Below are positions 3,996-62,812 of a DNA stretch of 64,000 nt, one piece after another. The notes beneath the pieces were generated by a model. That model worked only from the letters and a program-made list of their open reading frames with translations, searched no databases and had not been told where the DNA came from. Within the stretch, counting starts at the first letter, position 1; each line of letters starts with the position of its first letter. The stretch comes from Minisyncoccia bacterium (GTDB lineage: Bacteria > Patescibacteriota > Minisyncoccia > Phycocordibacterales > Phycocordibacteraceae): assembly GCA_038228545.1 (NCBI GenBank), contig JBBRPE010000003.1, positions 64,442-128,441 on the forward strand, given 5' to 3'. The translations under genes were made by a program, and so were the position numbers.

Positions 3996-5027
3996 CTATC
4001 TGCCTGATGCAGACCAGTGCGGTGGGTCGTTCGGCAACTGATTATAAAATCCATACTGTCCGGCATGAGCTCTGAGCCACGTGTATGCGCCCGGTCCGAG
4101 TCGTATATCAACAGCAGTTCCTGACGTGTGATTCGAGCCATTGCCTCCAAGCGAGCATGGCACCGCGGCAGTTCTGGTGGAACACACAGCACTGCCATTC
4201 ACCAGACGACACCCGTTGTTATTCCACGCAGCTGTCTGGTCGTCTGGAGATCGATACCCAGACGACACCCGCAAATCTACACCTTCTCTGAGGGCAGCAG
4301 TACGCATAGATACAAAACGCTGAACCGTATCTGCCAAATCTCTATGAGACCCGATGTCAGCAGAACTGGGGAATGGAACGAGCTGTGATTCTGGTATCGC
4401 TGTACAACTACCTCCGCCTCCGCCTGGGCCCGGGCCGCCAGTACCACCTCCAGGACCAGTTAGACTTCCAGCGTCCGTACTACCCACAATTCCGTTTGTG
4501 ATACTCCCAAACAAACCTTGGATACGCTGTGGTGTTGTTTCGCTTATGCACATGTCTTCACCATTGTCAGCAAGAATGCTATTCCATGGACCAAATGTTG
4601 AACCGGAAGCTGTACCGTCTGATGCATTTGGTTTATAGAGTTTTTTCATTATGTAATCGACGATGAGCCATGCGGCAAGCACGATTGCAAGTCCAATCAT
4701 CACATTAATAAACATCCCTCTTCCTTTGCTTCTCGCTTCAGCATTACTGCCGTTAAACATCCAAATAAATCCCGCGTAAACGAGCGCGAGCGTAGCGAAG
4801 ATACAGCCGAGAGAAATCATAAGATTTATGACATTTTGTGTCGTTGCAAGTACACAACCATAGGAAGCGGCCGAGGTATGGCCGGGAACACCATCGCAAT
4901 TACATTCTGTTGGGACTATCGGCCCGAAGAAATTTGCGGTTGCCGCATGGGCTGACACAGGAACTATAAGCACGATGAACGCCAGGGTGAGTCCTGCACT
5001 GAGCTTTGTTAGTGTGCTGTACTTCAT
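3996..5027 (-). CDS. Secreted fusion protein: T4SS-pilin-like (TrbC/VirB2-like) N-domain, Gly-rich linker, C-terminal peptidase M15 (VanY/LAS-type zinc peptidoglycan peptidase)
   Basis: Signal peptide (…VSAHA). Then IVPTECNCDG and two TM helices (LMISLGCIFATLALVYAGFIWMF … INVMIGLAIVLAAWLIVDYIMKK). These match the paralog array at 19.9-22.1 kb. Linker is GPGGGTGGPGPGGGGGS. The C-terminus has SGYRSPDDQ, HTSGTAVDI and DPPHW, which are M15 zinc-ligand motifs. Confidence 0.7.
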   Translation of the reverse strand: MKYSTLTKLSAGLTLAFIVLIVPVSAHAATANFFGPIVPTECNCDGVPGHTSAASYGCVLATTQNVINLMISLGCIFATLALVYAGFIWMFNGSNAEARSKGRGMFINVMIGLAIVLAAWLIVDYIMKKLYKPNASDGTASGSTFGPWNSILADNGEDMCISETTPQRIQGLFGSITNGIVGSTDAGSLTGPGGGTGGPGPGGGGGSCTAIPESQLVPFPSSADIGSHRDLADTVQRFVSMRTAALREGVDLRVSSGYRSPDDQTAAWNNNGCRLVNGSAVCSTRTAAVPCSLGGNGSNHTSGTAVDIRLGPGAYTWLRAHAGQYGFYNQLPNDPPHWSASGR

Positions 5028-5029
5028 TA

Positions 5030-5563
5030 TTACGGGAGCTTCACCGCTCCTGGACAGAAACTAAGTCCGACCGGGTCGGTGCCATAGGTATCACTCAATC
5101 CCGGACCTGCTGAAACATAAGTGTCGAGCGCACAAAGCACTGGATTAGATAGTTTGAGTGTGGTGCGCAATGCGTCTTCTGCAGCTATTCTCGTCGCTCC
5201 GAGAGGTTCCGCAAGAAGTGTAACAAGCACGCGTGCCTTACCTCCATTTTGGGCCGGAGGTACATAAGTTATAAGAAAAGTAGAATACTCTGAGCCTGCA
5301 ACACGATACCCGGACACCGGATCTGCCCATGCGGGCTGGTCTATTTTTGTAAAATCAGGAACTGCTACTTTTGACCCATCGCTCAGAACGATAGTGAGCT
5401 GGTTACCAACGGGTATTACACTGCTCCCAAGACCTCCAAAGGGAGAGGTCGTTGCTGTACCGGATGTGACGGGTGAATACGTTTTTTTAATCAGCCAGTA
5501 CATTCCGAATACGGCGAATACCACGAGAAGTACTGCCAACCCTATAGCCAGCGGCTTATTCAT
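5030..5563 (-). CDS. Hypothetical membrane-anchored protein
   Basis: One N-terminal TM helix. Lies between the two pilin-hydrolase fusion genes and is probably in the same operon. Confidence 0.5.
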   Translation of the reverse strand: MNKPLAIGLAVLLVVFAVFGMYWLIKKTYSPVTSGTATTSPFGGLGSSVIPVGNQLTIVLSDGSKVAVPDFTKIDQPAWADPVSGYRVAGSEYSTFLITYVPPAQNGGKARVLVTLLAEPLGATRIAAEDALRTTLKLSNPVLCALDTYVSAGPGLSDTYGTDPVGLSFCPGAVKLP

Positions 5564-5587
5564 AAAAAAATTGTATCATGCATGATT

Positions 5588-6631
5588 TTAGCGAGCCTGA
5601 CATCTTGGGTCGGACGACCTTGCTCCTGGAACTGCGCAACGAGTCGCCGAGCATTGCCATGCAGAAAGATTCTGTGTGTACAGACTACAGGCCACCTGTG
5701 TGTTAGTTTGACCATTTTGGGCGGCCGAAACACAGTCCTGATAGAGACGTTCCTTACCGGGTACAACCGAGGAGTCACATCCACCGAGTCGTTGACCCGC
5801 ATAGTGGAGCGCGTTTCCCTCGCATCTTTGTGTAAACGCAGTCGTACAGGCTATACCGTTCACTCTAAGGGGCGAGGTTGTGAGGTTAATCTGCCAGAGC
5901 CCAACAGAGTAGCTCCGCCCGTTACCACGATCCAATTTATCCGAGGTGGAAAGGATGGCGACTTGTCCGCCCGCACTCTCGAGATTGCAAGTTCTTGACG
6001 CTGCTTCTCCAAGAGCTGCGAAGCAAGTACTGGATAGACTCTGCACACTACACGCTCCGCTTGCAGGAAGAGTACAACTCCCTCCACCCCCCACTCCACC
6101 AAAACCACCTCCTCCACTTCCAGCGTTCGTGCCTCCCACGACGCCATTTGCAATACTTCCGAATAGTCCTGGGATTACTGTCGTCTCCCTCGGTTGTATA
6201 CACCAGGAGCCTGCCGCTGCAGGAGAGAGAATTTTATTCCACGGACCATAGGAACTTTCGTTGTAGAGCGTCTTCATGATGAAGTCTACGAACAGCCAGG
6301 CAGCAAGAACGATGAACATACCAATAACGACATTCAGTAACATACTCTTCGCCTTACTGCGCATTTCGGGATTTGTCGGATTGAGCATCATACTTGCGCC
6401 TGCGTAGGCTGCGACAAGAACGAATGCAATAACCCCAATGGAAACGGCCGCATTCATAAGGTTCTGAATGAGTTGCAGTACACCTCCGTAATCACACGGA
6501 CATGCGGTGCACTCCGTCGGAACTATTGAAAAGGTTGGGTCAAGAAGCGATAAATTTGCGGCATACACGGGAAGAGCCGCGCTTACAAAAAGAGTAAGCG
6601 AGAGAGAAGTAACCAGGAGAGCCCTACGCAT
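5588..6631 (-). CDS. Secreted fusion protein: T4SS-pilin-like N-domain, Gly-rich linker, C-terminal lytic transglycosylase-like (GH23/SLT-like) domain
   Basis: Start set at MRRALLVTSLSLTLFVSAALPVYA (signal peptide). IVPTECTACPCDYG plus two TM helices are paralogous to 3996..5027. Linker is GSGGGGFGGVGGGGS. The C-terminus has ES…(30 aa)…GLWQIN and HYAG, which resemble the SLT catalytic E-S and GLMQ/AYNAG motifs. Confidence 0.6.
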   Translation of the reverse strand: MRRALLVTSLSLTLFVSAALPVYAANLSLLDPTFSIVPTECTACPCDYGGVLQLIQNLMNAAVSIGVIAFVLVAAYAGASMMLNPTNPEMRSKAKSMLLNVVIGMFIVLAAWLFVDFIMKTLYNESSYGPWNKILSPAAAGSWCIQPRETTVIPGLFGSIANGVVGGTNAGSGGGGFGGVGGGGSCTLPASGACSVQSLSSTCFAALGEAASRTCNLESAGGQVAILSTSDKLDRGNGRSYSVGLWQINLTTSPLRVNGIACTTAFTQRCEGNALHYAGQRLGGCDSSVVPGKERLYQDCVSAAQNGQTNTQVACSLYTQNLSAWQCSATRCAVPGARSSDPRCQAR

Positions 6632-6814
6632 ACTTGTATTGTAGCCTCTCAGAAGGCCCTGGCACTGCTTTGTTCCCACCTTATAAATCTGCTAAGGTAG
6701 CCAAGAGGAAGCTCAAATTCGCTTCGCTCGGGCCATATGCGTTGCTTGCACGTATATGAACCCTTCGTTCGGCGGATTACACTGAATCCTGATTCAATGT
6801 ACTCACCTCACTCA

Positions 6815-6885
6815 GGGTCCATAGTTTAGTGGTAGAACATCGGTCTCCAAAACCGATAGTGTAGGTTCGATTCCTACTGGGCCCG
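6815..6885 (+). tRNA. tRNA-Trp (anticodon CCA)
   Basis: Cloverleaf readable by hand. Acceptor gggtcca/tgggccc with discriminator g. Anticodon loop ctCCAaa. T-arm ggttcgattcc. CCA is not encoded. Confidence 0.8.
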
Positions 6886-6932
6886 CAAATAGAAAAGCGC
6901 CATTCGGCGCCTTTTCTATTTGCGGGCCCAAG
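6886..6932 (+). terminator. Perfect 20-bp-stem hairpin downstream of tRNA-Trp
   Basis: gggcccgcaaatagaaaagcgcc-attc-ggcgccttttctatttgcgggccc. The stem re-uses the tRNA 3' end. Confidence 0.5.
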
Positions 6933-7006
6933 CAAACCTGGGAGGTTTGCTTGTAGGAATCGAAGATGTTGCGGAGAAATGGAGGAAATGGGGTCAGGAA
7001 ATGGGG

Positions 7007-7684
7007 TCAGCCACCATTCTTTTTCGGACGTCCGACTGTCCGGAGAGTTTGCTCGAGACCGTGTCTCTTCACCATGGTATCAAGCCACACGTCGTTCCCA
7101 AACGGAATACTCTTTCTTTCAGACTGTTCGAGTGCTTCTTCTTCGCTTGGGGTCTGCGGCTCGTCGAGCCATGCAAGATAGTCAGGGGGAGAGGATACGG
7201 GCCAGGCTGAGAGGAGTTTCTGTTGTTGTGCAGTACCACTTTCTCTTCGCCAGGCACTTCCCCACCTCCACTGTGGTGCACTCTTTACCAAGTTTGCTTT
7301 CTTAGCGTTTCGCTCAACGTATCTAACCAGAGTTAGAAAATACTTGTCCTCTCCACAGAGAAAGGACTTGTAGCGTCCCTGATACAGATGACCTTCGCCG
7401 ACCGTTCCTTTTGCGATATGCCATCGGCGGGTATGAGTGTTGGTGACCCAAGACATGAATTTCGAGAGATCGCCGTCTTCTTTCGGGTACAGGACAAGAT
7501 GCCAGTGATTGGGCATGAGGCAATACGCGAGTATGCGCATATCGAAGGTTTCTGCTGCTTCTTCCAGGATGGTCTCGAACATGCGATAGTCGTCAGGAGT
7601 GTCGAAAATCTGAGCACGGACATTGGCGCGATTAAGGACGTGATATACATGTTTTCCCACGTCGACACGTTCGATGCGTGGCAT
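7007..7684 (-). CDS. Y1 (HUH) transposase, IS200-like / REP-associated tyrosine transposase-like
   Basis: HuH motif in YCLMPNHWHLVL and conserved HVYHVLNRANVRAQIF. At 225 aa it is longer than classic IS200 TnpA, so it may be RAYT-like. Confidence 0.7.
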   Translation of the reverse strand: MPRIERVDVGKHVYHVLNRANVRAQIFDTPDDYRMFETILEEAAETFDMRILAYCLMPNHWHLVLYPKEDGDLSKFMSWVTNTHTRRWHIAKGTVGEGHLYQGRYKSFLCGEDKYFLTLVRYVERNAKKANLVKSAPQWRWGSAWRRESGTAQQQKLLSAWPVSSPPDYLAWLDEPQTPSEEEALEQSERKSIPFGNDVWLDTMVKRHGLEQTLRTVGRPKKNGG

Positions 7685-7789
7685 GCAGTAAGGGTATCAC
7701 GGGGAAATGGTGGCTGACCCCATTTATCCGAAGAAACTTCTGCGAGCATTTTGTGATTCTGAGAGCAAAATCCGCAAAGTGGACAGCGA

Positions 7790-7818
7790 GTGTAGCTCGA
7801 GTTTCCTACTGGGCCCGC
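7790..7818 (+). pseudogene. tRNA-Trp 3'-fragment duplicate (pseudo-tRNA)
   Basis: agtgtagctcgagtttcctactgggcccgc versus the tRNA 3' part agtgtaggttcgattcctactgggcccgc. Confidence 0.55.
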
Positions 7819-7892
7819 GACCGAGCCGAGTGACGACGAGGCGAGAGTTGTGACCGCAGAGGGCCCAAGCAGGCGTGGGGCGCCTGCGTGTA

Positions 7893-8008
7893 GGAATCGA
7901 AAGGCGCAGGCCGGGTAGGCCGAGCCGGGGTCGACCAAAATCGCAGCAGCGATTTATGGGTGACTGATGCCTGCCTGATTCTTATCAGGACACTTCCTAC
8001 TGCCCACT
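7893..8008 (+). repeat. tRNA-flank structured repeat, copy A
   Basis: Has ggaatcgaaa…ggggtcgaccaaaat-[hairpin aaatcgc/agca/gcgattt]-atttatgggtgactgatgcctgcctgattcttatcaggacac. Ends with a degenerate tRNA-Trp 3' end (ttcctactgcccac). Paralogous to copies at 44143-44260 and 43555-43680. Confidence 0.6.
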
Positions 8009-8507
8009 ACCGCACATACACAAACACTCCATCCTTCTTCTCCCCTTCCCACGTCGGAAGCGGAAATAGATTACAGACAACACGTGCTCCGGGCGCAAGT
8101 TCTCGCGAGAGCTTTCGTTCGAGACGCTTCATAATGTGCGAAATACCAAACACGGTCACTACCGAGTACCGGGATAAATCGACAGACCACATGTCCCTCC
8201 ATTCAACCGATGCACGTGAACCAAGCCCTTCCTTGCGAATGGCTCTATTTGAAAGCCACACAAGAAGTGGATTTATCTCAACACCTCGTGCTTCTATTCC
8301 AAGTCGTGCAGCAGCTATGACGAGACGGCCATCGCCACTTCCAATATCAATAAGACGGTCTCCGGGCCCTAGTTTCGTGCTGCTCAACATACTTTGCATA
8401 AGAAGTGTGTCAGTCGGTATATAGAGCGCCCCATTGAGTAGCCCTAGAAAATAGGCACAGAGCGCTGAACCGACCACAAGCAGGAGGTAGAGGAGAAGTG
8501 CCCACAT
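8007..8507 (-). CDS. Class I SAM-dependent methyltransferase with N-terminal TM helix
   Basis: SAM-binding motif LIDIGSGDGRLV. Hydrophobic N-terminus. Lies downstream of the type IV pilin gene. Confidence 0.6.
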   Translation of the reverse strand: MWALLLYLLLVVGSALCAYFLGLLNGALYIPTDTLLMQSMLSSTKLGPGDRLIDIGSGDGRLVIAAARLGIEARGVEINPLLVWLSNRAIRKEGLGSRASVEWRDMWSVDLSRYSVVTVFGISHIMKRLERKLSRELAPGARVVCNLFPLPTWEGEKKDGVFVYVR

Positions 8508-8534: not shown

Positions 8535-8993
8535 TTAGCAGTTTGTCGCTACGCCGAGCGCAGCTGCCTTCTGAGTAGATGTACTCGTGCTATCAACGCA
8601 CCAATAGAGGGCGGTATTAGTTTTAAGCTGGGCTGACATAGCCCACGCGGTGGCAGAACTGTTACAGGTAACTGCAGCAGAACCAGAGCTCGCGGCGCCG
8701 TTTTTCATACTGACAATACTCGGCACGTTATTTATAGGAGTCGTTGCTTGGCATACGTCAGTTGCAGCAGATCCTTTGTTGTACGAATTACCATTAGCAT
8801 CATAAAAGAGCTCCGCCTGTGCGAGCGCACTGTGGAGTGAGGCCTTTATGGCGGCGTCAGCACCTTTTTGACGTGCTGTACTGAGCGAGGCTAATACGAC
8901 TGAAGAAAGTATGCCAATAATGGCAATGACAACGAGGAGTTCTATGAGAGTGAAGCCTTTTGGGTGGGAGAGAGTATCGTGGTTCATTATCAA
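8535..8993 (-). CDS. Type IV pilin (prepilin-type N-terminal cleavage/methylation domain)
   Basis: G|FTLIELLVVIAIIGILSSVVLASL, the classic class III signal. C-terminal Cys pair. Confidence 0.85.
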   Translation of the reverse strand: MIMNHDTLSHPKGFTLIELLVVIAIIGILSSVVLASLSTARQKGADAAIKASLHSALAQAELFYDANGNSYNKGSAATDVCQATTPINNVPSIVSMKNGAASSGSAAVTCNSSATAWAMSAQLKTNTALYWCVDSTSTSTQKAAALGVATNC

Positions 8994-15853: not shown

Positions 15854-15902
15854 GTTAGTTGAATATAACGCGCGGAACATAAATCTGCATCTCCACTTCT
15901 TG

Positions 15903-15925
15903 TACCGGGGGTGGGAGTCGGCTCC
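15903..15925 (-). pseudogene. Duplicate of the tRNA-Leu(TAA) 3' end
   Basis: 18-nt identity (taccgggggtgggagtcg) with 16076-16093. Lies 173 bp downstream of the gene on its strand. Confidence 0.5.
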
Positions 15926-16075
15926 CGTCACTAATTCGCTTCGCTCAGAAGTGCGCCAACCGGAGCTCGTCACATTCTCCTGCCCCGCAGACGTGACTAC
16001 GCTGTTCGACTCCCACACGGACTGTGCGAAGGCACTATCCTCCCCGGTACAGCTTTATGGCTTCGCCTAAATCAG

Positions 16076-16158
16076 TACCGGGGGTGGGAGTCGAACCCAC
16101 ACGGCATTTCTGCCAGGGGATTTTAAGTCCCCGCTGTCTACCATTCCATCACCCCGGC
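16076..16158 (-). tRNA. tRNA-Leu (TAA)
   Basis: Long variable arm. Anticodon loop cuUAAaa. T-arm gggttcgactccc. Confidence 0.75.
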
Positions 16159-17578: not shown

Positions 17579-17854
17579 CATGAAAGAAAACACTGCGTCT
17601 GCACGCAGTTTTTCTTTACATGTGCGAGGCGGAGTCATGTTTTCATTCCCCTGAAAACGGACGAGCCCGGGTCGGGGTTGCGAGCTAATTTGTAAATCCT
17701 GGAACAAATGAGCCGCAAACCGTGACCACAAGTGCGCCCACGCAGACGTGGGGTCGCGGAATCACGTCCCATGCAAGGCAACAAATCACCTAATCTGCTA
17801 CGATACACACATGCCCCTGGGGCGGAATCGGTAGACGCGAATTGGAAGTAAAGT

Positions 17855-17935
17855 GCGGGGATGGCGAAATGGTAGACGCGCCTGCCTTAGGAGCAGGTCC
17901 CTTCGGGGGTGGAGGTTCAAGTCCTCTTCCCCGCA
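17855..17935 (+). tRNA. tRNA-Leu (TAG)
   Basis: Long variable arm (ggtcccttcgggggt). Anticodon loop ctTAGga. T-arm ggttcaagtcc. Confidence 0.75.
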
Positions 17936-17995
17936 CTTTGTTTCGAATAGCCTGCCGCGGGACGTAGATGAAGTGGGGCTTCATCTACGCGCACT

Positions 17996-18046
17996 GGTCC
18001 CTTCGGGGGTGGAGGTTCAAGTCCTCTTCCCCGCACTTTGTTTCCA
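17996..18046 (+). pseudogene. Duplicate of the 3' 44 nt of tRNA-Leu(TAG) plus 9 nt of flank
   Basis: Identical ggtcccttcgggggtggaggttcaagtcctcttccccgcactttgttt. Preceded by a perfect 10-bp hairpin (gtagatgaag-tgggg-cttcatctac). Confidence 0.55.
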
Positions 18047-18202: not shown

Positions 18203-19318
18203 ATGTTCCTCAACAAAAATATCAGCCGTAATATGTGGATAGTGGCCCTCACGCTCATCGCGTTCGGCTTCTACTACGCATTCCTGGGTCCTCGCTGGCT
18301 CATGATTGTGGGTGCCCTCGGGTGTTCCATCTTCCTCTTGGGTCAGGAGACCATCAAAAACGACCCTCTCGAGGTGGGTTTACTCACCTTTTGGGGCCGA
18401 CGACTGGAAGTCGTCATCCGTGAAGGCAACAAGCTACTTGCACCGTTCTTTCCGTTCATGATCGGCGTCATCAAGATTCCGGTTGGACGAGAAGTACTCG
18501 AACAGAAGTTTGAGGTCGTCGCCCGCAACAAGCAGGTGGACGCTAACGGCAACGTCGAGTTCCAAATGGCAGGCAAGTTGTCTGTCGAAATTTCCCTCGT
18601 CTTTCAGCCTGACTATGAGGCTCACAACGCGGGATACCGCCTGAAGCGCTATCTGATCTCCGGTCGAGCGGCCGGCGTGAAAGTAATGTTGGAGCAAGTG
18701 CTCGTCACCTACACCAGGTACGCAGCGCTTACGCATTCCTGGAATGTCTTCATGTCGCTCAAAGCCCCTCTGGGGGCGGCGATCATCACGAAGATTGCAG
18801 GGTCCCAGATGCGGTCTTTGAATCGCGTTGCTGGTACTATTCCGGCAAACGATCTTCTACTTGAAGGCGACGCCTACTGGGCGCGGCCTGAAATAACGGA
18901 AGCGAGTGCGGTCGAGTACCTCCTCGTACATCCTGTCGACAGTCCAGAGTACAAGAACCGCTATCGTGAAATTGAGCGCTTTCTCGAAATCGCGCTCAAG
19001 AACGGCGGCGGCGACGTGCTCGACCTCGGCATATTGTTGCAACGCGTCAACGTCGAAGCAATCGAACCCACCGGCGATCTCGCCGCTGTGGCCGATGACC
19101 CCGCCGTTGAAGACGTGCAGCGCACGTCTGAGACCAAGGACATTGCCACTGAGCTTGTTTTGGCTCAGATGTACCGCGATGTCGATCCCAGCATGAGCCT
19201 CAAGGACGCTCTTGAGTTTGTCCGCGTGAACCGCGGACGTGCGAAAGAGCTCATTGTCCGCTCAAGCGGCAACCCCGCCGTCGATGCAGCTGCGCTGTTC
19301 GGCAACCTCAACCACTAG
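18203..19318 (+). CDS. SPFH/band-7 (stomatin/prohibitin-like) domain membrane protein
   Basis: N-terminal TM then a core resembling SPFH (LLTFWGRRLEVVIREGNKLLAPFFPFMIGVIKIPVGREV). Long C-terminal coiled/acidic tail. Confidence 0.5.
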   Translation: MFLNKNISRNMWIVALTLIAFGFYYAFLGPRWLMIVGALGCSIFLLGQETIKNDPLEVGLLTFWGRRLEVVIREGNKLLAPFFPFMIGVIKIPVGREVLEQKFEVVARNKQVDANGNVEFQMAGKLSVEISLVFQPDYEAHNAGYRLKRYLISGRAAGVKVMLEQVLVTYTRYAALTHSWNVFMSLKAPLGAAIITKIAGSQMRSLNRVAGTIPANDLLLEGDAYWARPEITEASAVEYLLVHPVDSPEYKNRYREIERFLEIALKNGGGDVLDLGILLQRVNVEAIEPTGDLAAVADDPAVEDVQRTSETKDIATELVLAQMYRDVDPSMSLKDALEFVRVNRGRAKELIVRSSGNPAVDAAALFGNLNH

Positions 19319-41628: not shown

Positions 41629-41775
41629 GAAATAAAAGAATTTCCTGTAAGCAGCCGTAGAATACGAAGCCAGCGAGGTGAGTCATCCGACCGAGGTCTT
41701 CGAGTGGCGGTGCGAGCCGATGGCTGGCGACTTATTCTACGTGTCGCCCTGGAAGGCGGAGTCCTCTTTTATTTT
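41629..41775. repeat. Intergenic repeat, family Y copy 1
   Basis: gaaataaaaga…[long imperfect hairpin ccgtagaata…tattctacg]…tcttttattt. About 95% identical to 56211-56346. Sits immediately 3' of the ATP-grasp gene stop. Confidence 0.6.
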
Positions 41776-42979
41776 AAGATTGCGAGCGGAGCACCATATC
41801 CCAAATAAGTGCCGCTACATTCCGTGGTTCCCCCTCAAACGGCAAATGATGATTATCGAAAAACGGCATTGAATTACATTCGATTACTCCGCATCGCTCC
41901 TGTTCCTTCCAGGACTTCGTAATGTCGTCGATGATGAAATCAATGCCCACAATTGATGCCTTAAGCACCCGCGCCACTTCTTCAAAGAGTTCCGCGTTGT
42001 CCGGATGTACGTCATCAGTAACGTCAGCCGTCGTACCTCCGACGCCCCAGTTTATTTTTTGATTGAGTAGTACTTTCTGGCAGTTTTCAGGAATACTGGA
42101 AAAGGTCATCTTTTGCCAAGCAAGCTCTTTTTCTGCATTGTCATCGAGCTTCATCTGGTGGAAATACGGTCCACTACGCTTCGGGTTCTTATTCGCTTCT
42201 TCTACGAGTTCAGCCACGGTGTGCGTGCCGTCACCAATAACGTATGGCTGGTCACGCCGCAGTGTTGCTGCCAGTTTTCCATCGACAACGGTCGCGCGAT
42301 ATACCGGGCCCACCAGCTCCTCTTCTATGACGGCTGCAGGGCAAATTTGAGTAGCAATCTTAAACGCGCGTTGGAGTTCTTCAAGAGAATCAATGTGCAA
42401 TAGCGTGTGGCGAGAGCCGGAACCGGAATACGGCTTCACAATAACAGGTGGTGTAAGTCCGTTATATATCTTCTTGGCTGCCCACCAATTACTTGCTGAG
42501 CCTCCGCGGGCGACCGGCAGTCCCAGCTTTGAGAAATGTTTCTTAAGAAGTGCTTTATTATCCAGCCATTGAACACGTTGTATAGAGCGCGGTGGAAGCG
42601 GTATACCCTCGTACACTATCTTCTTCCCATCGGGCAATCGCGCCATAAATATATTGCGCGGTAGATTAAAAAGACGTACTTCTTCTATCTGAATTCCACG
42701 AGTATCAGCTTCCTTCCATAACATGAGCGCAAGAAGTTGTGTGCTGTCGTCGGGCCGAGAGATGCGTGTGGCCCAGCCAAGACGCATAAAAAGCTCAAGC
42801 AAGTATGGCGTGAGAGCACGCTCTATGGCGGACGCTCCTTTGCCAAGCACGACCCCGACAAAGCCTGGGTCAAACATGGCGCGCATCGAATCATCGATGA
42901 GAATCGTGTAGTACGTCATCCCGTGAAAGATAGGATCGCCACCGCACTCGGCACACGCTTTTGCTTGAGGCATATTCAT
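41774..42979 (-). CDS. ATP-grasp domain protein (RimK/cyanophycin-synthetase-like ligase)
   Basis: C-terminal half has ATP-grasp pattern (VIVKPYSGSGSRHTLL…VIEEELVGPVYRATVVDGKL…GVIECNSMP). Confidence 0.5.
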   Translation of the reverse strand: MNMPQAKACAECGGDPIFHGMTYYTILIDDSMRAMFDPGFVGVVLGKGASAIERALTPYLLELFMRLGWATRISRPDDSTQLLALMLWKEADTRGIQIEEVRLFNLPRNIFMARLPDGKKIVYEGIPLPPRSIQRVQWLDNKALLKKHFSKLGLPVARGGSASNWWAAKKIYNGLTPPVIVKPYSGSGSRHTLLHIDSLEELQRAFKIATQICPAAVIEEELVGPVYRATVVDGKLAATLRRDQPYVIGDGTHTVAELVEEANKNPKRSGPYFHQMKLDDNAEKELAWQKMTFSSIPENCQKVLLNQKINWGVGGTTADVTDDVHPDNAELFEEVARVLKASIVGIDFIIDDITKSWKEQERCGVIECNSMPFFDNHHLPFEGEPRNVAALIWDMVLRSQS

Positions 42980-43298: not shown

Positions 43299-43554
43299 AT
43301 ACCTATTTTACCGTGTCTTTCGAAATCCAGAAACAAGCACTGTGTGTGGGCTATATCTAGATATGGAATGCGACACCGAGATAGTACGGCCAGATAATAA
43401 GTGCGAAAACCGCTGGCCAGAGAGTCAGTTGCAAATAACCGACGGTAAACAACCACGCGGCAATCCAAACACCTCCCCACAAACTATGGTGCTCTACTTT
43501 TATTTTTTCCATATACCTAGTATAGCAACGGAAAATCCGCCCGAAGGCGGTTTC

Positions 43555-43680
43555 CAGTTGCGGAGAGGGAGAGATGTGTCCTCACAAGAATGAGGCACGC
43601 ATCGGTCACAGATATTTTTCTGCTGAAAAATTCCGCGACCCCGCCTCGGCGCCGGCGCGCCTCCGGCTTTCGAATCTCCC
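43555..43680 (-). repeat. tRNA-flank structured repeat, copy C
   Basis: Minus strand reads gggagattcgaaa…gcggggtcgcgg-[hairpin atttttc/agca/gaaaaat]-…gtgaccgatgcgtgcctcattcttgtgaggacac. Then atctctccctctccgca, a copy of the tRNA-Ser 3' end. Confidence 0.6.
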
Positions 43681-43746
43681 ACGTCCAGTCCCCAACTGGA
43701 CTCCTCTCCACAAATGAAAAGACCCGCCTGTGCGGGTTTTCATTTG

Positions 43747-43833
43747 CGGAGAGGGAGAGATTCGAACTCTCGGTACAGTTTCCCATACGCCACATTTCGA
43801 GTGTGGTGCCTTCGACCACTCAGCCACCTCTCC
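43747..43833 (-). tRNA. tRNA-Ser (CGA)
   Basis: Long variable arm. Anticodon loop cuCGAaa. T-arm gagagttcgaatctctc. A terminator hairpin (cccgcacaggcggg) follows on the minus strand. Confidence 0.75.
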
Positions 43834-43998: not shown

Positions 43999-44070
43999 GG
44001 TCCCATCGTCTAACGGTTAGGACGCGGCCCTTTCACGGCTGAAATCGGGGTTCGATTCCCCGTGGGATCA
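43999..44070 (+). tRNA. tRNA-Glu (TTC)
   Basis: ggtccca…cggccctTTCacggctg…cggggttcgattccccg tgggatc a. Terminator gccgccgcaaggcggtttt follows. Confidence 0.75.
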
Positions 44071-44142
44071 TGAGACACGAGCCGCCGCAAGGCGGTTTTG
44101 TGCTACATGGTCCCACGAGCACGATGTGGGACATCGTGCGGG

Positions 44143-44260
44143 GGAATCGAAACGCGGAGCCGTGTCGACGGCGAGCGGGGGTCGACCAAAATTGTAGCAA
44201 CGATTTATGGGTGACCGATGCGTGCCTGATTCCTATCTGGACACTTCCCCGTGGGATCAC
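44143..44260 (+). repeat. tRNA-flank structured repeat, copy B
   Basis: ggaatcgaaa…gggggtcgaccaaaat-[hairpin aaattg/tagcaa/cgattt]-atttatgggtgaccgatgcgtgcctgattcctatctggacac. Then ttccccgtgggatcac, a copy of the tRNA-Glu 3' end. Confidence 0.6.
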
Positions 44261-44328
44261 CAGTTCCGTCAATCTCGCGTTTGAGCACGATACAGTAAGA
44301 GCATCCTTACTCATTCGTCACCTAGTGT

Positions 44329-46142: not shown

Positions 46143-46237
46143 CAAAACGAAGTCGCCTCAAGCGTAAGCTTGGGACTGCTATCGTTTTGCAGTAGCGGTG
46201 AGAGATTCGAAAACCGTGCGACTGAATCCCAGTATTT

Positions 46238-62470: not shown

Positions 62471-62477
62471 ATGTTTG

Positions 62478-62812
62478 TTGGACTGGTTCGATAAGCCGAA
62501 TTCTGTCATTCCCGGAGGAACGGACGACCATTTATCTGGGCCGTATGTTGCCATACGGCTCGAGCGGCACCCCTTCCGAAGAAGGTACGGCCTTGCACCG
62601 AAGTAAGGATTTTGCCGTTTCAGCCTGAAGTCGCCCTCAGGACGCTCTACGAGAGAGCATCTACCCTTTCGGGATCGATCGTTTCTGTTCGCACCTCGCA
62701 CATTACTGTGGACGGGCGTTACCCGCTACCCTTCTGCCTGCATTGCTGCAAGCCGGAGTTCGGACTTTCCTCAGCACGCGAGCGGTGTTGCGATCGTCTG
62801 AACCAGTCCGAA
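62478..62812 (-). ncRNA. rnpB: RNase P RNA (bacterial type A, reduced)
   Basis: Minus strand carries AGGAAAGUCCGAACUCC (P4 5' strand with bulged U), GGGUAACGCC, and ACAGAAUUCGGCUUAUCG (P4 3' strand; GAA/UUC compensates the usual GGG/CCC). P1 is GGACUGGUUC/GAACCAGUCC. TGgTATAAT -10 box at 62813-62821. Confidence 0.85.

Follow-up and report, generated by a model that had tools for sequence, protein, structure and literature searches.

Small tRNA-specific units with a folded core and an internal complement of the tRNA 3' half follow tRNA genes in Patescibacteria

We describe here a family of small units that follow tRNA genes in a 64,000-nt stretch of the genome of a Minisyncoccia bacterium (GenBank assembly GCA_038228545.1, contig JBBRPE010000003.1, positions 64,442 to 128,441 of the forward strand), which is referred to below as the window. 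A preliminary description of the window had reported three copies of a structured repeat in the 3' flanks of tRNA genes. This repeat is real and far from chance, and it forms the core of a larger unit, which adds an internal complement of tRNA positions 54 to 74, an element-borne terminator, and swappable tRNA-specific segments in a modular framework, none of which the preliminary description had foreseen. The family looks like a diverse, undescribed group of small (about 150 to 250 bp), protein-less cassettes for tRNA gene 3' ends, with at least three interchangeable core types, and it corresponds to no RNA or transposon family on record. Of the 11 tRNA genes in the window, at least 7 are followed by a related unit, three core types being represented among these units, and the units have no coding capacity. 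Full-text literature searching found no description of the element, and the nearest paper found deals with group I introns that occupy position 35/36 of tRNAs in Patescibacteria (PMC13011429).

Read in the sense of the tRNA, the order is tRNA, intrinsic terminator, complement of tRNA positions 66 to 74, side hairpin, complement of positions 54 to 65, core, and a sense copy of the tRNA starting from position 59. The first complementary segment covers the acceptor 3' strand and the discriminator, and the second covers the T-stem 3' strand and the whole T loop (e.g., GTAGGAATCGAA). Across 25 tRNAs from Patescibacteria loci, 396 of 408 positions in these two segments are Watson-Crick matches to the tRNA, and the complement tracks variants of the T loop, with TCCGATT matched by AATCGGA and TTCGACT by AGTCGAA. 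The few mismatches (3 G·U, 3 A·C, and 6 other) show no G·U bias. Of 45 tRNAs, 22 are followed by a 12-mer complement with no more than one mismatch, and the spacing is stereotyped, at 32 to 77 nt (chance expectation in 300 nt, ~7e-4). The sense copy starts exactly at position 59 in all type 1 units and is perfect for 13 to 22 nt in most; the type 1 junction is always TTCGA|N59, and a duplication or a Campbell-type repeat is another possible reading of the flanking sequence. A terminator scan predicted the first terminator ahead of the Glu and Ser units of the window, and reading the spacers by eye revealed a GC hairpin with a T run ahead of the structured part in ~10 of 15 units. A second terminator follows the downstream copy in all seven loci read: it was predicted after the Ser copy of the window, and a hairpin with a T run was read after six copies from relatives (collected loci L002, L007b, L014, L015, L025, and L039). 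The scan that predicted the terminators found no promoter-like site. The side hairpin is 22 to 25 nt long, with a loop that is usually YGGGR. By eye, loops of this kind (TGGGG, TGGGA, CGGGA, or GGGG) were seen in ~9 of 12 type 1 and type 3 units, including those at 44119-44139, 43683-43702, 7868-7888, and 6931-6951 of the window, while the stem varies; such a loop could be a tertiary contact, a protein contact, or a D-loop mimic.

The core of ~100 nt was predicted by RNAalifold from 18 copies to form three hairpins, H1, H2, and H3, of which H1 has a conserved GGA/GA internal loop. Among 28 copies, standard pairs are formed in 96.2% of the cells, compared with 32 to 44% in slid controls, and 24 of 32 pairs show changes on both sides, with 0 of 500 shuffles reaching the observed values; the alignment of these 28 copies was fitted to a covariance model, which flatters the pairing figures, and an 18-copy alignment made with MAFFT only agrees with it. 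One core pair is G·U in 24 of the 28 copies, and G·U-type cells outnumber A·C-type cells by ~33 to 4 when counted by hand in the 18-copy alignment. Because G·U pairs prevail over A·C pairs, the folding strand is the tRNA-sense strand. When full units were folded, the minimum free energy (MFE) structures had the complement and the downstream copy forming a stem, interrupted by the side hairpin, that closes a four-way junction with H1 to H3. MFE z-scores of full units range from -3.6 to -7.3 relative to mononucleotide shuffles (-5.3 for the Glu unit). The preliminary description had noted covariation in two hairpins and had read it as selection on RNA structure. The covariation was borne out and shows that a folded single strand is under selection, and H1, which was absent from that description, covaries too.

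The three copies first reported are present at their given positions, with exact motif matches at 7960-7976 (+), 44211-44227 (+), and 43593-43609 (-), and share the common motif and hairpin order (GGAATCGAAA and GGGGTCG, then a long hairpin whose loop is AGCA, GTGACYGATGCSTGCCT, another hairpin, and finally GGACAC). A collapsed repeat in the assembly is ruled out, because the three cores are only 70 to 81% identical pairwise and relatives occur in independent metagenome-assembled genomes and metagenomes. The observation as a whole was confirmed in part, with three corrections. A copy had been sized at ~115 nt, but the unit is larger, as it also includes the terminator, the two segments complementary to the tRNA 3' half, and the side hairpin. 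Each copy had been said to end in a duplicate of the tRNA 3' end. This is true for Glu, where 44245-44259 repeats 44056-44070 (a perfect 15 nt of the tRNA-Glu 3' end), and for Ser, where 43560-43575 repeats 43746-43761 (perfect over 16 to 18 nt of the tRNA-Ser 3' end), but not for Trp, where the duplicate has decayed to 9 contiguous nt (ttcctactg) followed by cccacta where the tRNA has ggcccgc; a better, 16-nt copy of the tRNA-Trp end lies upstream of this copy at 7803-7818. Finally, the Trp copy had been placed 100 to 190 nt from its tRNA, but its core begins 1,008 nt downstream of tRNA-Trp because another unit, split by a 0.7-kb insertion sequence (IS) with a Y1 transposase, sits between them.

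The unit following tRNA-Glu(ttc) (43999-44070, +; ARAGORN and Rfam) can serve as the type example. The last 15 nt of the gene (44056-44070, positions 59 to 73) are the upstream copy, here called A, and are followed by a trailer with the first terminator, termA (44071-44108, with the hairpin and T run at 44081-44099 in the terminator scan). The region complementary to the tRNA (44109-44151) consists of the anti-acceptor segment (44109-44117), a side hairpin with a TGGGA loop (44119-44139), and the anti-T segment (44140-44151, gggggaatcgaa). The type 1 core (44145-44244; covariance model score, 107 bits) contains H1 (44153-44177), H2 (44180-44216), a GATGC junction (44217-44221), and H3 (44222-44244), ending in GGACAC, and the downstream copy, B (44245-44259), is a perfect sense copy of positions 59 to 73 followed by CCA. 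The expressed tRNA-Glu gene is without CCA (gggatca|tga), and the displaced downstream copy continues into CCA (gggatca|cca; 44056-44073 versus 44245-44262), which agrees with the downstream copy having been the original end of the gene. On the minus strand, tRNA-Ser(cga) (43746-43833; ARAGORN and Rfam), with its A copy at 43746-43761, is followed by a unit at 43576-43745, with termA at 43717-43737, the anti-acceptor segment at 43703-43711, the side hairpin at 43683-43702, and the anti-T segment at 43669-43680. Its type 1 core, also a covariance model match, spans 43576-43675 (H1, 43643-43667; H2, 43604-43640; H3, 43576-43598), and the B copy with the second terminator occupies 43532-43575 (B, 43560-43575, 16 to 18 nt perfect; termB, 43532-43553).

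As far as sampled, the family is confined to Patescibacteria. A pattern scan of one genome per species recovered 12 true loci, all in Patescibacteria (Paceibacteria/Parcubacteria and Saccharibacteria), and a scan of metagenomes added 10 further copies and one chance match (L037). The 17 matches of the genome scan outside Patescibacteria (L001, L003, L005, L008, L009, L012, L013, L016 to L021, L024, and L027 to L029) were, like L037, judged to be chance because the upstream motifs and hairpins were missing, the loci contained no tRNA, and several groups had long aligned coding-like flanks. The single match among IMG/VR viral contigs lies within a coding sequence and was also attributed to chance. 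Phage and plasmid records searched by blastn in distant mode gave no match, and Rfam, applied to the whole window at the gathering threshold and to the Ser/Glu region at an E value of ≤10, returned only tRNAs, RNase P RNA, and noise. A covariance model identified 33 copies at an E value of <0.01 across the window and the collected loci, and the reported association with tRNA 3' flanks was upheld: for 25 of the 33, a same-strand tRNA is found no more than 400 nt upstream, compared with a background of 4.8%. The remaining eight comprise three at contig edges, one overlapping a tRNA, two with an intervening insertion (L006 and the Trp locus of the window), and two orphans (L011 and L031) that still carry tRNA-Glu-like ends; L011 has also kept a perfect 12-bp closing stem. 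The framework was found after Trp, Glu(ttc), Glu(ctc), Ser(cga), Ser(gga), Met, Arg(ccg), Arg(gcg), Gly(gcc), Gly(tcc), Cys, Leu, and Lys tRNAs.

The units come and go at orthologous sites, and their parts are exchanged. Using the conserved neighbor Sua5, the syntenic Val-Sua5-Glu(ttc)/Ser(cga) region was recovered from three relatives (L055, L056, and L057). The Glu(ttc) site is filled in the window and in L055 and empty in L056 and L057, where a gene starts 50 and 78 nt past the tRNA, respectively. The Ser(cga) site has a type 1 core in the window and the same left module with a type 3 core in L056, and it is empty in L055 and L057. Whole-unit alignments of the Trp unit of L039 with the Glu(ctc) units of L010 and L035 show homology in the terminator, in the side hairpin (AGCAAAGCG..CGCTTTGCG), and in the core, and the three tRNA-specific modules are replaced. 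Mean core identity is 0.72 within a genome, 0.71 within a tRNA type, and 0.715 across both, and core similarity follows neither genome nor tRNA type. The closest pairs cross both boundaries. The closest pair of cores, from a tRNA-Ser locus in Saccharibacteria and a tRNA-Met locus in Paceibacterota, shares 94.6% identity over 92 nt, and the core of the window Glu unit is 90% identical to that of a relative's Trp unit. Tandem arrays occur in L039, L010, and L026 and at the Trp locus of the window, and truncated copies occur in L022 and L030. In L030 (locus coordinates 43-217), a truncated unit with H3 only follows tRNA-Glu(ctc), and the end matched by the downstream copy of this unit (ttccccgttggatcac) is of the tRNA-Glu(ttc) type and not that of the adjacent tRNA, implying module exchange or tRNA replacement. 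Taken together, this gives a picture of a dynamic family that moves horizontally.

These findings support the earlier interpretation in part. The proposed attL/attR-like direct repeats are present, with no integrase among the neighbors tested, and the suggestion of a miniature element mobilized in trans is consistent with the filled and empty orthologous tRNA sites; the suggestion of a tRNA-coupled small RNA is weakened by the canonical terminator ahead of most copies, with no promoter-like site found. The explanation that we tentatively favor, at somewhat less than an even chance, is that the units are nonautonomous, tRNA-specific insertion cassettes that enter between A58 and N59 of the T loop and act as a folded single strand, probably of DNA, with a built-in splint complementary to the target. 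The incoming unit would supply a replacement tRNA 3' end and a terminator, and the tRNA would therefore stay intact and its transcript would stop before the rest of the unit. The active form would be the folded tRNA-sense strand, and DNA is favored over RNA, given the terminator ahead of the structured part and the lack of a promoter-like site in the scan. In this form, the complement is predicted to pair with the unit's own sense copy and close the four-way junction, leaving the final five bases of the complement (TCGAA, or TCGGA in the case of a TCCGA T loop) single stranded beside GGACAC|TT. These free bases could then pair with TTCGA in the T loop of the target, with the remaining complement swapping from its own copy to positions 59 to 73 of the target, such that the complement would act as a splint or guide, bringing the two sides of the exchange point into register. 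A single-strand transposase or recombinase acting in trans (HUH/Y1-like or integron/Xer-like) may carry out the exchange, and the tRNA-specific modules would be rewritten when a unit moves to another tRNA, possibly through heteroduplex repair or quasi-palindrome template switching. A bolder version holds that the units are programmable, protein-less cassettes in which a folded core bears swappable modules, ~20 nt in total, that pair across the T-loop exchange point, along with a replacement 3' end and a terminator, and that these cassettes can be retargeted to any tRNA and spread horizontally across Patescibacteria classes through a single-strand recombinase or self-catalysis by the core; we regard this version as doubtful.

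Several observations weigh against insertion cassettes acting as single-stranded DNA. The 100-nt core is elaborate, having invariant junction bases, a tandem G-A internal loop, and a conserved G·U pair, and such a makeup is seen more typically in functional RNAs than at the ends of known single-strand DNA transposons. In L025, L034, and L033, the downstream copy has decayed yet the core is intact, and hence pairing with the downstream copy is not always maintained. The boundaries of the unit are ambiguous as well: insertion at A58|N59, insertion of a unit running from termA to B after position 73, and a long target duplication all fit, and L015 has a 55-nt repeat that takes in the terminator. 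No mobilizing enzyme was found, as Pfam searches of the neighbors in the window, L006, L010, L011, and L031 gave no recombinase, and the sole nearby HUH protein, a Y1 transposase of 225 amino acids, has unrelated ends and, in six of eight contexts, no link to a tRNA. The retargeting mechanism, moreover, is pure inference.

Some of the same observations would fit a tRNA-like noncoding RNA, which we consider unlikely. Such an RNA would arise by terminator read-through, its 5' complement and 3' copy would form an acceptor/T-stem minihelix identical to that of the neighboring tRNA, the side hairpin with its GG-containing loop would replace the D and anticodon arms, and the three-hairpin core would replace the T loop; after maturation by RNase P and the tRNA 3'-end enzymes, it could be a mimic, a decoy, or a carrier scaffold for the core domain. 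The MFE folds match this architecture, including a predicted minihelix, and the strong covariation, the near-invariant G·U pair, the perfect 12-bp closing stem of the L011 orphan, and the terminator after the downstream copy in all seven loci read agree with it. In addition, the deviation in the complement of the window Glu unit (G opposite T71) is G·U compatible and equals the tRNA's own 5' strand, and the downstream copy keeps the discriminator and sometimes CCA. However, the canonical terminator directly upstream in ~10 of 15 units, together with the lack of a promoter-like site in the scan, argues against expression of such an RNA. The complement also covers T-loop positions 54 to 58, which are not present in the 3' copy, and closing-stem pairing therefore cannot account for the way in which these positions track the tRNA. 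Decay of the 3' copy beside intact cores (L025, L034, and L033), complement mismatches without a G·U bias, and the absence of an Rfam match all speak against it, and neither the presence/absence turnover nor the horizontal pattern is predicted for a resident RNA gene. A guide RNA of the transposon-end type, such as the omega or right-end RNA of TnpB/IscB or a Cas12k-style homing guide, appears improbable. Here the core would be a scaffold, the next 15 to 17 nt a 3' guide, and the T-loop TTCGA a 5' target-adjacent motif, with an effector encoded elsewhere for homing to or binding tRNA genes. The structured scaffold of ~100 nt leads directly into a flank-derived sequence of guide length, and the presumed insertion point lies immediately 3' of a fixed pentanucleotide, as in IS200/IS605 elements, a family in which protein-less derivatives that retain the left and right ends (PATEs) are known. 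On the other hand, no TnpB, IscB, or Cas12 gene was found near any copy tested, the two unannotated window neighbors are unlike such effectors, and there is no similarity to the omega, HEARO, or CRISPR families in Rfam. The guide would be sequestered by the internal complement, the unit again has an upstream terminator with no promoter-like site found, and a guided nuclease would cut its own host locus, because the replacement 3' end recreates TTCGA and the guide match in the live tRNA gene.

There is likewise little chance that the units are passive scars of classical integrase integration (attL/attR remnants or cis-mobilizable attachment site cassettes) in which the hairpins are incidental, an explanation that was already disfavored. 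Direct repeats that extend from within the T loop to about the tRNA 3' end, tandem arrays at one tRNA, the 2.4-kb island between tRNA-Gly and the core in L006, and a plain 47-nt duplication of tRNA-Leu(tag) in the window are what it would lead one to expect, and insertion at the T-loop sublocation has reportedly been described for tyrosine integrases. Nevertheless, a classical integrase att site explains neither the internal complement nor the terminator nor the modular framework. The same framework stands at 10 or more different tRNAs with matched sequences, the compensatory covariation comes with strand-specific G·U pairs, the core is conserved up to 95% across classes, and no integrase was found beside any copy tested. 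Three further ideas on the origin of the complement were rejected. Derivation from a tandem pseudo-tRNA does not agree with a T-loop part that complements the T loop instead of copying it (AATCGAA, and AATCGGA for TCCGATT). Retrovirus-like tRNA priming, with a copy stop at m1A58 and the complement as a primer-binding site, would not have the complement run through positions 54 to 58, and the Trp and Ser complements run into the gene trailer and do not match CCA; a further point against it is that group II introns and their reverse transcriptases are reported to be absent from Patescibacteria (PMC13011429). A perfect palindromic "empty site" centered on TCGA is likewise at odds with a complement that runs through positions 54 to 58, and the arms of such a site overlap.

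The most complex locus in the window is that of tRNA-Trp (6815-6886, +; A copy, 6871-6886; ARAGORN and Rfam), with all parts on the plus strand unless stated otherwise. The proximal unit (6887-7802) has termA at 6887-6921, the anti-acceptor segment at 6922-6930, the side hairpin at 6931-6951, and the anti-T segment at 6953-6964, and its type 3 core (ATGTTGCG at 6966-6973 and GCGAGCATTTTG..GCAAAATCCGCAAAGTGGACAG at 7742-7786) is interrupted by the Y1 IS. A second copy of the tRNA-Trp 3' end (ttcctactgggcccgc, 7803-7818) is both the B copy of the proximal unit and the A copy of the distal unit. The distal unit (7861-7993), to which the Trp copy of the preliminary description belongs, comprises the anti-acceptor segment (7861-7869), the side hairpin (7868-7888), the anti-T segment (7890-7901), and a type 1 core (7895-7993; 97.9 bits) with a slightly degenerate motif (GTGACTGATGCCTGCC), and it is followed by the decayed B copy (ttcctactgcccacta, 7994-8009). 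The IS200-like element itself (6974-7741) carries a gene on the minus strand for the 225-amino-acid Y1 (HUH) transposase (7007-7684; Pfam Y1_Tnp, 1.5e-18) and is bounded by perfect 19-nt inverted hairpin repeats (AATGGGGTCAGCCACCATT, 7000-7018 and 7706-7724). That it interrupts a type 3 core follows from the uninterrupted homologue in L056, which lies after the orthologous tRNA-Ser left module. Homologues of this Y1 protein number in the thousands across Patescibacteria, are 65 to 75% identical, and have the same repeats. Six of the eight contexts sampled have no tRNA link, and the other two are in or beside a tRNA 3' unit; in L042, the Y1 IS lies 13 nt past a type 3-like hairpin. We rejected this transposase as the mobilizing enzyme or as cargo, since its own 19-nt hairpin ends are unlike the cores and occur only around the Y1 gene and its contexts are mostly non-tRNA, and we treat the element as a separate IS that has twice landed in or beside such units. 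Two window open reading frames (ORFs), 18203-19318 and 41774-42979, were also considered as hidden effectors and rejected; they have no Pfam match and are unrelated to each other, and their sequences were judged to suggest a membrane protein and an ATP-grasp-like protein, neither of them effector-like. The island in L006 (locus coordinates 4500-6933) separates tRNA-Gly(tcc) from the complement and core of the unit and encodes a CopG/VapB-like ribbon-helix-helix protein and ORFs of no assigned function, with no recombinase found. A tRNA-end remnant, cccgca, adjoins the unit and suggests that the island probably arrived by a further integration at this tRNA, independent of that of the unit.

Further units and remnants are scattered through the window. 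After tRNA-Leu(taa) (16075-16158, -), a unit with a type 2 core (15902-16074, -) has the anti-acceptor segment at 16042-16050, the side hairpin at 16019-16041, the anti-T segment at 16005-16016, and the core at 15920-16004. This core of ~85 nt ends in GTGACGGGAGCC and follows the same left module as in the other units, and the B copy (15902-15919) is perfect over 18 nt and begins at position 57 rather than 59. A core similar to type 2 was seen after tRNA-Cys in L026 (5230-5356). A degenerate type 1-like unit (17620-17757, +; 28 bits, E = 4e-4) lies 40 nt after tRNA-Lys(ctt), and in the remnant after tRNA-Val (46194-46213, +), only a stretch complementary to the T loop and T stem is left (agcggtgagagattcgaaaa), and no core is intact. 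The 3' half of tRNA-Leu(tag) is present twice, as a perfect 47-nt direct repeat that extends from the variable arm to 7 nt beyond the tRNA (17897-17943 and 17997-18043, +). The duplicates are 53 nt apart, and the insert begins with CGAATAGC and holds a TGGGG-loop hairpin resembling the side hairpins of the units; this may be a minimal or decayed relative of the family. Apart from the units, a bacterial class A RNase P RNA at 62476-62809 (-) scored only 127 bits against a gathering threshold of 100 and appears to be a divergent version from the candidate phyla radiation (CPR), and the translation of an ORF at 8535-8993 (-) has a type IV pilin-like N terminus (GFTLIELLVVIAIIGILS). Competence or pilus machinery could be relevant to the uptake of single-stranded DNA and the horizontal spread of the units.

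If the complement does specify the insertion site, the units would be a natural, nucleic acid-guided, and retargetable insertion system of ~200 nt without a protein gene of its own. Such a system would stand beside the IS605 guides, bridge RNAs, and group II introns, its moving enzyme or ribozyme would be worth finding, and it would account for a recurrent unannotated feature of otherwise streamlined Patescibacteria genomes. Should the tRNA-like RNA explanation be correct instead, the units would form a new and widespread class of RNAs that mimic tRNAs, in a phylum where hardly any noncoding RNAs have been characterized. The units also flag a source of misannotation of tRNA loci and of horizontal exchange between CPR classes.

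When set against known systems, the family lacks a defining feature of each one tested. The restoration of the tRNA recalls integrase islands. As in tRNA elements of tyrosine integrases and cis-mobilizable elements (CIMEs), an element-borne 3' end restores the gene, the repeats run from the T loop to the tRNA end, and tandem arrays are formed. Unlike in those elements, no integrase was found among the tested neighbors, one framework serves many tRNAs and not one att site, and the structure is conserved, with an internal antisense copy of the target and a size of <250 bp. Integron attC and CTX phage attP(+) sites offer a different parallel, as there too the site is a folded strand whose structure is kept while its stems vary, cassette-like arrays occur, and, in the modeled fold of our units, a hairpin would reconstitute the target site in double-stranded form and leave a region unpaired where the exchange takes place. 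Here, however, the target is the tRNA T loop, the hairpin arms are target specific and differ between copies, and neither IntI nor Xer was found among the tested neighbors.

The logic of a guide that spans the junction recalls group I introns (internal guide sequence, P1/P10), group II introns (exon- and intron-binding sites, EBS/IBS), and IS110 bridge RNAs, with a contiguous complement over the exchange point (5 nt 5' [TTCGA] and ~15 nt 3') and modular, swappable specificity. Nonetheless, the catalytic core of a group I or II intron was not found (no Rfam match), and a terminator would lie inside the would-be intron; with regard to group I, there is no Intron_gpI match, A58 stands at the 5' junction, and the last base of the unit is C and not the terminal G. 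The units differ from IS110/IS1111 bridge (seek) RNAs in having a closing stem and three plain hairpins instead of two loops, and no DEDD recombinase was found among the tested neighbors. The omega RNAs of TnpB/IscB and the homing guides of type V-K CRISPR-associated transposons (CAST) are similar in that a 3'-end scaffold reads into 15 to 17 nt matching the tRNA 3' end, beside a T-rich T-arm motif. GGACAC is followed by positions 59 to 73, and TTCGA precedes the same sequence in the tRNA, which is the geometry of a scaffold, a guide, and a target- or protospacer-adjacent motif (TAM/PAM). They are dissimilar in that the copies tested have no effector gene nearby and no match to a scaffold family, and the unit would target its own locus. 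Compared with tRNA-like RNAs (transfer-messenger RNA, bacterial Y RNA, and viral tRNA-like structures), the units have a predicted acceptor minihelix, an authentic T loop replaced by the core, and no Rfam match.

This leaves the PATEs and the REP/REPIN elements, which are moved by Y1 HUH transposases and RAYTs. The units depart from them in their guide, a Watson-Crick complement of ~20 nt and not of 4 nt, in carrying a replacement piece of the target gene, a terminator, and a core that is a 100-nt multihairpin junction, and in ends that do not match those of the local autonomous Y1 IS (AATGGGGTCAGCCACCATT). In common with them, the units are small and protein-less, have covarying single-strand hairpins, and, if they are indeed insertion cassettes, would be mobilized in trans. 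As such cassettes, they would enter directly after a short fixed sequence, in this case TTCGA, and an internal "guide" would pair with the target or cleavage site. A conserved Y1 transposase family is present in these genomes. Overall, the family works most like the IS200/IS605-type hairpin elements and REP/RAYT.

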